64,000 nt of DNA. It comes from Balanoglossus misakiensis (taxonomy: Eukaryota > Animalia > Hemichordata). The position numbers were made by a program, and so were the translations under genes. The stretch spans positions 7,734,844 through 7,798,843 of the forward strand of contig CM082588.2 of the NCBI GenBank assembly GCA_040954595.2, written 5' to 3'. Shown one piece after another: positions 369 to 48,832 of the stretch. The notes under the pieces were generated by a model, which was not told the origin of the DNA, ran no database searches, and was given only the letters and a program-made list of their open reading frames with translations. The first letter of the stretch is position 1; the number at the start of each line of letters is the position of its first letter.

Positions 369-500
369 ATGCTTCCTGTGCTTGGTGCAACTGTAAGAGT
401 GATAATCTCAAGAAGTTTATACGCTGTTGTGAAGTGATGTATTGTGGGAAAGACTGCCAGAAACAACACTGGATGAAAGGTCACAGAGAAGAATGCAAAG
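369..500 (+). CDS. NLR copy 1, MYND-type zinc-finger exon (phase 1-1, 132 bp)
   Basis: Pyrimidine tract ttctctcctttatctcaag|AT and donor AAAG|GTACAA; encodes CAWC...KKFIRCCEVMYCGKDCQKQHWMKGHREECK (MYND-like, one Cys replaced by Phe). Confidence 0.65.
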
Positions 501-1126
501 GTACAATTGATCCTTTTCTGAACTCCACATGACGTACCCACGAGATTTCACGTAGCTAAGCAATTTATATGGGAGGACATTCCCCTGGCACAGGGCAAAC
601 AATTAACACGGCCCACCATTTTCAATGGCACAAACAATTACATTTTTGTTAAACTCTGCACCTATTCTAATTTCTTAGCTACCAACACGTTGCTATAGTA
701 ATCATCCAAGTCTCAGGAGATTTCTCAATGAGCTGGAAATCATCATTGTTAAAGTCTGAACCTATATTCTAGTTACATACCAAGCTAGATAGTATGAAAA
801 TATTCACAAACACCTTTTAGTACATGTAAGAACTTATAAATAAGATACTGAAAATCTCCATGTTTCACGCATAATGTTTGTATTCTCATGTGCAGAGCTG
901 TCTGTCAAAAAGCTTGGGGTAATCACAACATGACCCTGCCTATATGGAACACAATATGTGGTTCATATACTACGGTAGTTATGGGTCATAATACTTCTAG
1001 TATACCATATGTAACCCCTGACTATATTATACTTAGTACAATGATGTTTTACAGCTTGTGAAAATAAACAGCAACTATCTGCAATACAAAAGTCATACTA
1101 TCAATATTATAATTGTTTTTCTACAG

Positions 1127-3933
1127 ATACTTCTGCAGAGTTTGAGTGGCTTAAAGACTATCTCAAAGAATTGTACAGCCATGACTTTGACAAGTTCCAA
1201 CCTCTGCCATGGAATGAAAACTTCTCGCTTCATTTATCTGATGTGTATACCCGACTGAAGATGGTAGAGGTTGATGAAAGGGGTAAGATCATTAAGGACA
1301 ATGAAGAAAATGACACTGTAGTTCATGAAAGTGCAATATTTGAAGCAGATAGAAAAGGAGTGAGACCACGTAGAATAAGAATTGAAGGACCTCCAGCTAT
1401 TGGCAAGTCAATGTTTTGTAGAAAGCTGGCCTACAACTGGGCTTGTGGAAAATTAGAGCAATTTAAATTAGTCTTTCTGTTGGAAATGAGATATATGAGT
1501 AAAGAATCAATCATAGAAACCATATTTGATCAATTACTTCCTGATGATGCGGGGATTTCCAGAGATGAGCTTGACAAGGTTCTGAAAAGGAATGCAGATT
1601 CTGTGCTGTTCCTCTGTGATGGTTTGGATGAAATGTGTAAGGATTTCAAGGAAATTTCTGATATTAGTCGGATTATTGCAAAGAAATTATTGCCAAGATG
1701 TACAGTAGCTATCACAACCAGGCCCCATGAATGTGACACACAGCTGAAAAACTGTGATTCACATTATCACATACAGGGCTTCACAAAGAGTGATTGTGGG
1801 GAATATATCAGGAAGTACTTCAAGCATGAGTCTGAGACTGGTGAGAATTTGATCATAAATTTAGTACAAAACCTCTGGTTTGAATGGTTGGGTGATTTCC
1901 TTAGTAATCCCTTACATGTTTCATTTCTTTGTGTACTGTGGGAGGATCATCAAGATGGTGACCATTTCCCAACTAGAGTGACAGAGTTGTATTTTGAAGT
2001 ATTGAAGTGTATTTTGAAGAGGTATTGTTCCAAGACTGGAGTCAGTCTTGATGATATCATGGCTGATGTAAGTAAACTGGCTGCCATTGCTTATAATTAT
2101 CTGAAACAGGGAAAAATACACATAAATGAGTTAGATGTGATTCCATCACGGCTCTTGTCACTAGGGTTACTTGTGCGTGATTGTGGTGTATCTCGCACAA
2201 AACCAAAGAAAGTTTGTTTCTTCTGTCACAAAACTTGGCTGGAATATTTTGCTGCTTTACATATTGCTGAATGTGTGAAGGATACTGCTTCCTTTGATGA
2301 GTTTCAATTTCTATCTGACGACATTTATGACCGCAATTTCCAAGTCTTTGTATTTCTGACTGGCACTCTGAAGGAGAAAGCTGGTCCAGTATTTAAGGAA
2401 ATTGGGATGGAGACGTGCAAGTCTGTAGGTGATGTTGGCCTTGAGTTTAGAATGTACTACTATATAGATTTCTTACATGAAAGTGTCAATTATCAAGCAT
2501 TTTTGAAATTCATAGAACCCATCCTTTTTCAATTGATGCATTTCATTTGTAATCCTTTATTTTATTTAAAAGTAAGACCTTCTATGGTTGTCAATTCTTT
2601 GTCTTCACCGTCACCTTATATTGTAGGTGACGATTTGAATTGTCATACATTGTATTATAAAGATAGATACTTGATGATAATCATTGATATGCTGAAGTAT
2701 AAACACTCACATGAAAGTAGACCCAAATTTAATAAAAATCTCCAGTTAGATATAAACAATATGCAATCATCAGAGATTTCCTATTTGGCAGAGGCACTGG
2801 AGAAGAATCTTATTTCTCTTGAATGGCTTGTGTTGTATGTGAGTCTATCCAGTGGCAAGGATCTGCTTCAGTTGGCAAAAGCTATCAGAGAAACCAAAGC
2901 GGTACAAAACATTCATATCCTTGTAAGTGATGATAGGGATAATGTTGTTGACAGCACTCCCAATGAAAAATGTAAGCAAGGCACCTCAAATAAAGAAACA
3001 GATTTGACATCACGCACTTTAAGAAACTTTATTGAAAATGCTGTGAAAAACAAGTATATTGATTGTTTGTCATTGCATACAGTTGACCGGTCTCACCATT
3101 CACAGGAGAATATTGATAACATTCTTCCATATAAGTCATTGAAACAGGCCAGGCACTTTCATAATATTGTGGAAACCAAAACAGGTGTAAATAGCGTATT
3201 ATTGAAAGTTGCTGATATGCTTGAACACTGTCAATCTACCAAGGTTTGTCATTTTGTACTTTTTGACCATTTGATATATTCTGTCATTGAGGGCAGTACT
3301 GCAAGAGCTTTGTTCAAAGCTGTTAAAAATATCAGCAAAACAATTAAATCTCTTTGCTTGTTTGTCACATCAGTATTTGCAAAGATACCTTATCTATCTC
3401 ATGTTGTGAATGAGATTTTACACATTTTGAAGTCTAACACCACATTAGAGGATCTTAAGTTATTTATAAAGAATGAAAATGTTGATGCTGTATCGAAGTT
3501 TATTCAATGTAATAAGAATGTCAAGTCACTGTCCTTTGCTCTGTATCAGTCCAGAATGAGCATAGACCATTTATGTTCAGCTCTCTGTGCTGCTTTGAGT
3601 TCCAATACAACTCTGGAAAGCTTTGCGCTGCATTTTGGTTTTGAGTTTGATATAGTTTATAGTAACCCTGAACTTTCCACTGAGCATAAGTATATTAGTC
3701 AATTGATTTTACCAACACATAGATTATTGTGTGATGGAAAAACTGCATTGAAGACGATTTCATTTACTTTTCCATCATTAGATGCAGAACGCAGGGATGA
3801 TATTGTCAATGTCATGACCGAGTATTTTAAAGGAAATGTTTCATGGTCATACCAATGCACTGTGAAGATGCCAATCAAGTTGTTTGGTGACATGTATTTT
3901 CACGTTCTGAAAGTATCGATCAGTGGACCCTAG
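1127..3933 (+). CDS. NLR copy 1, NACHT-winged helix-LRR terminal exon
   Basis: Acceptor tttttctacag|AT in frame with the 920-aa ORF; Walker A GPPAIGKS, Walker B VLFLCDGLDE, ITTRP, SNPL, FCHKTWLEYFAA; degenerate LRRs (NTTLEDLKL, NTTLESFAL). Confidence 0.92.
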
Positions 3934-4168
3934 AGAATGCTGAATGCCACATTTGCATAAGATGCATTCTGCTGTATAGGGGAAACTCCATGAAAAATTG
4001 TAAACTTTAATTTTGTTTTACATACACTTAATTTAAGGTACAGAAATAAAATATACCAGGTAACAGAATATACTACAGACATCAATGCTTGCACAGTTAG
4101 ACAAACTGTCAAGGAATTTTCAACATATTGTATCTAGATGGAAATATAATCAATTTACTAAGGACACA

Positions 4169-4700
4169 CAAAGTGAAAAAATAAACAAAATTTGATTTGT
4201 TCACTTTATAACAGTACTAGAATCAAATATCTACCACAAAGTGTTTTTCTTGACCGGAACTATGACAAATTCAAAAGGCTTATGAGTTCCACAGAATTAC
4301 AGGTATTATTGAATATTTGCAAGTATGTTTATTAAGCTATGGCTGTGAGAAGAACAGCCACTTATAGGATGAATAATATTGTTCAACTTTCTTTGTATTT
4401 GTGTAGTCAGCATTCACTTTGTATTTGTGTGATGTATTACTTTATTTGAGAACTGGATGTTCTCCTTGCATTTGGACCTGAGGTCTTAAAATGCAATAAA
4501 TTACTTTTATTATTACTGGCTGTGAGAAGAGCAGCCACTTGCCACTCATAGAGTGTATAATATTGTTCAACTTTCTTTGTATTTGTGTAGTCAGCTTTCA
4601 CTTTGTATTTGTGGGATGTATTACTTTATTTGAGAACTGGATGTCCTCCATGCATTTGGACCTGAGGTCTTGAAACGCAATAAATTACTATTATTATTAC
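4169..4700 (+). mobile_element. 5'-truncated LINE 3' end with 2 units of a 184-bp tail repeat
   Basis: Decayed ORF2-like C-terminus (ICSLYNSTRIKYLP...FKRLMSST...ICKYVY), AATAAA+(TAT)n tail, flanked by direct repeat TTACTAAGGACACA. Confidence 0.7.
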
Positions 4701-47929: not shown

Positions 47930-48320
47930 GTAATAATTAAGATTGACAAGTGGAATGCATTTCTATGGCTGAAATCTACAATCTTGTACATGTAGGTTTT
48001 TTTATATTTTGTGTAATTTTTGGTCAAACTCAATTTTTCCTTCATGGTCTCATAAATTATATGTGCAGATAAGAAATCATATTCCAACTTGGTCAGATGA
48101 CCCTGAGGGCCAATCTGGGTTAGCTTATTTCACATCTCAAGTCTTACATCATAATCATACATTGCATAGACCATTTATAAGCAAGTTTTATACTTATTTT
48201 TGCAATATATGAGAATGGGAATAATCAGGAAATCACGATAATTACAATTCCACTTTTATGGGGAGTCCAAATATCATGTTAGGTGGTGACATGTTGAGTT
48301 TTTGCCTCCAGTTATCTTAA

Positions 48321-48602
48321 AGGGACGTCGATTCTCTCTCACTTCCCCTTTTCCATTAATAAATGTTTGATACACGACACTGTTTATGTTATTCTACATG
48401 TGGATATATACCAAGTGAATCAACGTTCGACCGCACACAACTTCCATCCCACTTGTATGATATGAGAGCAACAAATCTCGCCAAAATGAATATGGTCGAA
48501 TGTTGATTCACTATATATTCACAAGTATATAACATAAACAGTGTCTTGTATCAAATATAATTAATGGAAAAAGGACAGCGAGAGAGAGACTTTAATGTCC
48601 CT
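48321..48602. mobile_element. TTAA-flanked MITE (Kolobok-like) in intron 1 of copy 5
   Basis: Same insertion site as 39201-39486. Confidence 0.7.
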
Positions 48603-48700
48603 TTAATGGCGACATCATGGTTGCTTAGTTTGAAAAAAAGATTCTGTTGTACACCACCATTAAAAATAACTTTTCTATAAATTCTCTCCTTTATCTCAAG

Positions 48701-48832
48701 ATGTTTCCTGTGCTTGGTGCAACTGTAAGAGTGATAATCTCAAGAAGTGTACCCGCTGTTGTGCAGTGATGTATTGTGGGAAAGACTGTCAGAAACAACA
48801 CTGGAAGAAAGGTCACAGAGAAGAATGCAAAG
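48701..48832 (+). CDS. NLR copy 5, MYND zinc-finger exon with full ligand set
   Basis: CAWC...LKKCTRCCAVMYCGKDCQKQHWKKGHREECK fits CxxC-CxxC-YCxxxCQxxxW-HxxxC. Confidence 0.75.

Follow-up and report, generated by a model that had tools for sequence, protein, structure and literature searches.

How does an animal immune receptor come to carry a zinc finger of a kind known from transcription regulators, and does it still depend on that finger? The question is raised by a stretch of DNA from the hemichordate Balanoglossus misakiensis (assembly GCA_040954595.2, contig CM082588.2, positions 7,734,844 to 7,798,843), the 64-kb window of this analysis. Throughout the window a single animal gene is repeated in tandem: the plus strand carries six NACHT exons, each 2.8 kb long, and a seventh copy begins at 63849. 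[quoted passage not shown] The preferred reading, held with modest confidence, is that this is a shuffled, likely spliced-in adaptor exon with phase 1 at both ends. It would give a predicted HEPN RNase-coiled coil-MYND-NACHT-LRR protein whose finger would bind proline-rich partners and now appears dispensable.

In a complete copy, an exon encoding a HEPN_DZIP3 domain and a coiled-coil repeat is followed by an intron and then by a single exon encoding the NACHT domain and the C-terminal half of the protein. The MYND exon lies between these two exons, on the plus strand, in copy 1 (369..500), copy 2 (11647..11778), copy 4 (39590..39721) and copy 5 (48701..48832); a tblastn search for a fifth MYND exon in the window found none. 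An earlier note on this DNA had described these four segments, each with a pyrimidine tract, an AAG acceptor and a GTACAA donor, and the description was confirmed. The note had also proposed scoring them with the zf-MYND hidden Markov model. All four match this Pfam family (PF01753) at 25.8-40 bits (E 4e-10 to 1e-5), with 37 bits in copy 1, 25.8 in copy 2, 36.5 in copy 4 and 40 in copy 5, above the curated cut-off of 22.7 bits. Searches of the Atlas and the PDB agree with the assignment.

The exon is bordered upstream by a tract ending in TCTCAAG and downstream by GTACAA. Its acceptor has an AG-free zone of 54-63 nucleotides with 79% pyrimidines, against 27-33 nucleotides and 63-79% at the NACHT acceptor, and is as good as the latter or better. 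The 80 nucleotides upstream of it differ by only 0-2.5% between copies. Within the 1.5-kb intron of copy 4, 46 segments running from an AG to a GT are open in frame, and the one that passes the signal filter is the MYND exon. Stops, frameshifts and splice-site losses are absent from all four exons. The MYND exon is a real feature and not a product of chance.

Phase 1 is found throughout: at the upstream donor, at both ends of the MYND exon and at the NACHT acceptor. As had been claimed, the reading frame is preserved whether the exon is included or skipped. Spliced computationally with the exon, the three complete copies that bear it give open frames of 1442-1499 amino acids; without the exon, all four complete copies give open frames of 1246-1455 amino acids. 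A symmetric frame is also an ordinary mark of a shuffled constitutive exon, and alternative use is an interpretation, not an observation. Given inclusion of the exon, the predicted gene structure places a non-canonical, host-type domain within an NLR. The earlier note's term "integrated domain" suits the predicted protein well, since the MYND module is genuine, its exon is symmetric and the gene around it is a true NLR.

The remaining parts of the protein identify the host gene. Its HEPN domain is DZIP3-like (Pfam PF18738, E 2.3e-39) and contains RNRLQH, a motif of the form Rx4-6H, in all four complete copies; it is a predicted RNase. NACHT domains were found by Pfam in the two copies scanned (E 3.2e-28 and 2e-27), and Walker A and B motifs are present in six of six. 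The RNxxxH, Walker A and Walker B motifs are intact. Pfam finds no LRR match in the C-terminal half of the NACHT exon. However, a model of this exon built from 20 sequences contains repeating strand-helix units there, at a predicted local distance difference test score (pLDDT) of 73.9; it was used in place of a single-sequence fold, which reached only 37. With about 920-1020 aligned columns (E 1e-24), NOD2 and NLRC4 are matches to this model, which supports a C-terminal LRR solenoid.

Between HEPN and MYND lies a stalk of 3 to 10 units of a proline-free repeat of 28/32 residues. Its hydropathy has periodicity peaks at 32 and 14 residues and a weaker one at 3.67, a pattern that is compatible with a coiled coil, although it is not proof of one. 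The coding tandem repeat, in units of 84/96 nucleotides, is found at 10321-11118, 30626-30865, 38007-38762 and 47255-47866. Because the number of units varies between copies, from about 3 to 10, so does the distance from effector to NACHT.

The closest relatives of the NACHT exon indicate how such a protein may be assembled. Fourteen of the 17 hits come from three acorn worms, Ptychodera flava, Glandiceps talaboti and Saccoglossus kowalevskii (P0001-P0014), at 30-47% identity, the best being 37% over 86-99% of the exon. In 13 of these 14 the alignment starts within the first eight residues of the NACHT exon. Their N-termini differ from that of the array: 11 of the 14 have a death-effector domain (DED), which in two of those 11 is preceded by OTU. 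A shared starting point combined with differing N-termini is what an exchange of N-terminal modules at this boundary would produce. MYND is absent from all 17 relatives, including the 14 from hemichordates.

The finger itself exists in different states. That of copy 5 has all eight zinc ligands, seven cysteines and one histidine (C3, C6, C16, C19, C25, C29, H38 and C42). Copies 1, 2 and 4 have lost the third ligand through C16F and so lack the full set. The motifs reported for this region, KKCTRC in copy 5 and KKFIRC in the other three, proved correct. Copies 1, 2 and 4 also share T17I, A21E and K35M; copy 2, the most degenerate, adds Y24C, and copy 4 adds K31E.

These changes can be compared with the 423 MYND domains that the 150 best relatives contain; the relatives were found with copy 5 as the query. 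Position 16 is cysteine in 422 of 423. Isoleucine occurs at position 17 in 2 of 423, methionine at position 35 in 3 of 416 and cysteine at position 24 in none of 423, and glutamate at position 21 is common, with 28 occurrences. Since C16F, T17I, K35M and Y24C leave the family consensus, copy 5 is taken to represent the ancestral-like state.

In solved MYND complexes certain residues contact proline-rich peptides, and judged by spacing copy 5 appears to have kept them, namely T17, Y24, Q30 and W34. The spacing of Y24, Q30 and W34 equals that of Y540, Q546 and W550 in BS69 (PMC4742278), and T17 corresponds to T516 of DEAF-1, which adjoins the ligand C515 and is named as a key binding residue (PMC3555993). 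Loss of a zinc site abolishes binding by BS69 (PMC3555993). A nearly invariant zinc ligand is gone from three of the four fingers, and decay explains this no less well than a role as a sensor. The receptor itself contains no PxLxP motif, so capture of the finger within the molecule is not indicated.

Patterns of divergence differ greatly along the gene. The MYND exon has 9 variable sites in 132, against 44 in 513 for the next intron. The ratio of amino-acid-changing to silent differences (pN/pS) is 0.73 for the MYND exon, from these very few variable sites. The NACHT core has 0.43 and HEPN 0.44, whereas the LRR half reaches 1.76. In windows of 100 codons the ratio rises to as much as 3.1 in the LRR half (copies 1, 2, 4 and 5; for instance 2400-3933), and is 0.1-0.2 over the first 200 codons of the NACHT core. 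The divergent LRR half that Pfam misses is under strong diversifying selection, and the arms-race signal sits there.

Several points weigh against the account of a shuffled, spliced-in adaptor. Divergence at the intron rate and a pN/pS of 0.73 do not point to purifying selection on the exon. Stops or frameshifts at a neutral rate had been named in the earlier note as evidence that would count against its proposal; none occurs in the four exons, but divergence does run at the intron rate. At such rates a neutral exon would stay open with its splice sites intact with a chance of about 0.06, a figure that is suggestive but biased, as its intactness is what drew attention to the exon in the first place. 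Acceptors of the AAG type are less common than YAG, and neither +4A nor +5G is present in the donor, which makes partial skipping plausible. The consensus counts tilt towards copy 5, since the relatives are hits to a copy-5 query. In the fingers with C16F, the spare C20 might stand in for the lost ligand. BS69 has two consecutive cysteines at this ligand site (PMC3555993), though presumably one position earlier. Finally, the distance of copy 3 in the NACHT core is 0.039-0.047, the largest in the array, against 0.018-0.033 among the other copies, which allows copy 3 to represent the state before insertion.

Copies 3 and 6 lack the exon, as had been noted, and this absence is genomic rather than an observation on splicing. 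What is missing is larger than the exon, however, and is not the same in the two copies: an intron block is absent from copy 3, and the whole 5' half of copy 6 has been replaced.

In copy 3 the intron is short (30929..31194). It lacks about 1 kb, its first 225 nucleotides being joined to its last 45 at ATACA microhomology (junction about 31151-31156). ATACA occurs on both sides of the block in copies 4 and 5, and once in copy 3. Loss of the block is favoured over its never having been there. The opposite polarity, in which copy 3 is ancestral and a block of about 1 kb was inserted recently, leaving ATACA as a target-site duplication, and then spread by duplication and conversion, is considered unlikely; it concerns polarity only and overlaps with the other readings. 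It would account for the ATACA pattern, for the NACHT core of copy 3 being further from the rest than that of any other copy and for a 5-bp inverted match, TTGCA, at the ends of the block. However, an identical pattern is the signature of microhomology-mediated deletion, and the array has undergone further deletions (in the copy 1 intron and in copy 6). In unrooted trees, copy 3 does not stand apart from all others but pairs with copy 1 in the NACHT core (support 0.80), with copy 5 in the 5' flank and with copy 2 in HEPN. Because the trees of six regions disagree, no order of duplication is claimed.

In copy 6, homology ends at 56682 and resumes at 57442. Between these points a 760-bp unrelated, G-rich block (56683..57441) occupies the place of the HEPN and MYND exons, and the entire 5' half of the gene is missing, including the HEPN exon. 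The NACHT-LRR exon (58023..60847, plus strand) has nevertheless kept its open frame and its phase-1 acceptor. Copy 6 could be a young pseudogene, or the HEPN and MYND exons of copy 5 could use it as an alternative last exon.

Copy 5 alone has an insertion behind the exon (48885..49699). It consists of a 680-bp element with terminal inverted repeats of about 33 bp, followed by a 76-bp duplication in which the final 23 nucleotides of the exon recur together with its donor. The second donor, at 49646, was rejected as a candidate: used from the normal acceptor, it would give an exon of 946 nucleotides with an early stop. The inverted-repeat element and the end of the foreign block of copy 6 (57442) lie within 1 bp of the same intron site, 53 nucleotides past the MYND donor, which is possibly an insertion hotspot. 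Upstream of the MYND exon, copies 4 and 5 alone contain a 290-bp palindromic element resembling a miniature inverted-repeat transposable element (39197-39490 and 48317-48606), with relatives at 19700, 20830 and 62650.

A different role for the finger is also conceivable, although it too is rather improbable. The exon might be an alternatively spliced integrated sensor. The MYND finger would then imitate a chromatin or co-repressor reader of the host that viral or bacterial proteins attack, their binding would set off the HEPN RNase, inclusion or skipping would switch specificity, and the C16F type would represent adaptive retuning. Both splice forms are in frame, and the AAG acceptor and non-consensus donor would suit such a switch. 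The position between the effector and the NACHT domain resembles that of some plant integrated domains, and the genes are under diversifying selection elsewhere. The coiled coil-MYND part of BS69 binds EBNA2 and E1A (PMC3555993, PMC4742278). Two contrasts in the exon point the same way, both tests having been picked after seeing the data and left uncorrected: among copies 1, 2 and 4 the exon is more uniform than the intron (1/132 against 29/617, p 0.046), and changes private to copy 5 are more frequent in the exon (5/132 against 5/617, p 0.019). All five of these private exon changes lie in amino-acid-changing codons.

Other observations count against it. The donor is not unusually weak, since +5G is likewise missing from GTAATA, the upstream donor that every transcript must use. 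Non-coding flanks are mosaics as well, copies 2 and 4 being homogenised to 1.7% in the 5' flank; gene conversion, with or without selection, therefore accounts for the uniformity of the exon, and selection need not be invoked. The changes themselves remove a zinc ligand kept in almost every relative and a binding residue, and loss of a zinc site abolishes binding in BS69. Plant NLRs with integrated domains have a paired sensor/helper layout, from which intact NACHT motifs and a HEPN domain in one protein differ. The decoy role proposed in the earlier note is unsupported, as the few variable sites of the exon (9) show no excess of amino-acid changes (pN/pS 0.73, against 1.76 in the LRR half). 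Its suggested link to viral PxLxP motifs found no support either. Binding of E1A and EBNA2 needs a basic C-terminal patch special to BS69 (PMC3555993), and this patch is absent from the array finger, which ends in REECK.

Less probable still is that the exon is a relic. It would have arrived on a fragment of a different gene, would seldom if ever be spliced in, and would persist only because the copies are young, being about 5% apart. Its divergence at the intron rate, a pN/pS not below 1 by any test, the damage in three of four copies and the absence in two of six would all be expected of a relic. A transposon-like insert and a duplicated donor lie 53 nucleotides behind the only intact finger, and none of the 17 NACHT relatives has MYND. 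Against this, splice sites, tract and frame are intact in all four copies (a chance of about 0.06 at intron rates), and the 80 nucleotides before the acceptor are nearly unchanged. The phase of the exon also matches that of the host gene, as random capture of a symmetric exon would do in one case out of three at best.

The boldest version, a plant-style bait in an animal NLR, with a coiled coil-MYND unit copied from a virus-targeted host reader, wired to a HEPN RNase, toggled by a frame-neutral exon per transcript and by deletion per copy, and with the C16F type sweeping as a retuned sensor, is equally doubtful. Extra domains in invertebrate NLRs may be under-counted, because catalogues rest on gene models and an exon of 132 nucleotides that can be skipped in frame is easily missed.

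The shuffled adaptor exon, then, is the preferred reading, and it suggests the following history. The MYND exon would have been shuffled into the ancestor of the array at a phase-1 intron where this NACHT lineage probably swaps its N-terminal modules. In the resulting protein, ligand sensing at the fast-evolving LRR half would cause NACHT to oligomerise, HEPN domains would meet and RNA would be cut, a sequence of steps for which NLRs and HEPN RNases provide the analogy (PMC9646362, PMC8662601, PMC3710099). The helical repeat stalk may cluster the MYND fingers, much as the coiled coil of BS69 does, so that the finger recruits or holds a regulator. Selection on the finger would later have relaxed: the ancestral finger was kept in copy 5, while a damaged version was presumably copied among copies 1, 2 and 4. 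Two copies would have lost the exon, whose symmetry left the frame unharmed. That three copies are damaged and two lack the finger suggests that it is now dispensable.

The array is a natural series of copies about 5% apart, with intact, damaged and two exon-less versions, and can be used to study the gain and loss of a domain by an NLR. Should the finger turn out to bind a protein of a pathogen, animals would have their own version of the integrated decoys of plants, here linked to an RNase effector. Should it be no more than a shuffled exon in decay, the array would be a tidy but unremarkable example of domain shuffling in an immune family that evolves fast.

The remaining exons, all on the plus strand, are arranged as follows. 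Copy 1 has the 3' end of a HEPN/coiled-coil exon, truncated by the window start (1..225), and a NACHT-LRR exon (1127..3933). The corresponding pair lies at 9682..11200 (with the RNRLQH motif) and 12412..15227 in copy 2, and at 37274..38825 and 40345..43160 in copy 4. Copy 3 has a shorter HEPN/coiled-coil exon with an in-frame gap of 13 residues (29989..30928) and a NACHT-LRR exon at 31195..33995. In copy 5 the HEPN/coiled-coil exon is at 46597..47929, the source of the HEPN_DZIP3 value above (E 2.3e-39), and the NACHT-LRR exon is at 50271..53134, the source of the NACHT value of E 3.2e-28 and the exon whose model and fold match NOD2/NLRC4. The start of the HEPN exon of copy 7 (63849..64000) is truncated by the window end.

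Downstream of each gene copy is a tandem repeat of 2 to 12 units of 184 bp (15631-17816, 34411-35125, 53577-54632 and 61239-62153). A multi-exon gene has been duplicated together with the array and precedes copies 2 and 3 (6945-8474 and 26216-about 27500). Its first open reading frame has no Pfam hit; from its motifs it may belong to the AAC4-like family.

Relatives of the finger were sought with HMMER (E 0.001), and the hits were mostly multi-MYND proteins. Among the best 150 of 1044 MYND relatives, NACHT and HEPN profiles gave no hits and no donor gene was found, the best single domains being about 55-62% identical. A Pfam scan of 43 of these 150 found ankyrin, TPR, RING, Sel1, SET, DUF4470 and LRR as partners, and no NACHT or HEPN. 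Word-index protein searches returned nothing for the 43-amino-acid exon (among longer proteins) or for HEPN residues 1-230 (among proteins of 780-2225 amino acids), and are weak negatives. A MYND-NACHT fusion was not found in the open-access literature searched, where none of 40 papers containing both MYND and NACHT is on such a fusion by its title, or in the supplements of PMC8662601, PMC8260672, PMC12258605 and PMC5819176, and MYND itself was not found in those of the last two; in their accessible parts, PMC3499355 and PMC9262711 mention MYND and NACHT separately, not fused. These negatives are limited, as gene models can skip this exon and the searches were length-limited.

The array resembles known systems in several ways. 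The MYND fingers of BS69/ZMYND11, DEAF-1, ETO and SMYD2/3 share with copy 5 the C4-C2HC ligands and the tyrosine, glutamine and tryptophan that bind peptides, and in BS69, ETO and DEAF-1 a coiled coil precedes the finger, as is predicted here (PMC3555993, PMC4742278). Those fingers are found in transcription regulators or methyltransferases, whereas the finger of the array sits in a predicted cytosolic NLR, lacks the basic patch of BS69 and has lost its third ligand in three of four copies.

Plant NLRs with integrated domains (PMC5819176) and fungal NLRs with non-canonical zinc fingers (PMC12258605) likewise carry an extra host-type domain in only some paralogues. In contrast to these, the array encodes a NACHT protein of an animal that has an enzyme effector of its own and for which no pathogen ligand, paired helper or signal of selection on the extra domain has emerged. 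The hemichordate DED-NACHT and OTU-DED-NACHT proteins have the nearest NACHT sequences, but they have a death-effector N-terminus instead of HEPN and no MYND.

The closest parallel in architecture can be found in the HEPN-NLRs of bivalves, corals and other invertebrates, which combine a DZIP3/hRUL138-like HEPN (PF18738) with NACHT and LRR (PMC9646362, PMC8662601, PMC3710099); an Acropora relative is among the hits here (P0015). Common to them and to the array are an N-terminal HEPN with Rx4H, a NACHT domain, an LRR solenoid and tandem arrays of variable copy number. The word MYND does not occur in the main text of the same three papers. HEPN-NLRs and extra domains in NLRs are thus already known. 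Within the scope of the searches above, what sets this array apart is a MYND exon, with a long helical repeat of 28/32 residues before it, between the HEPN domain and the NACHT-LRR part of such a receptor.

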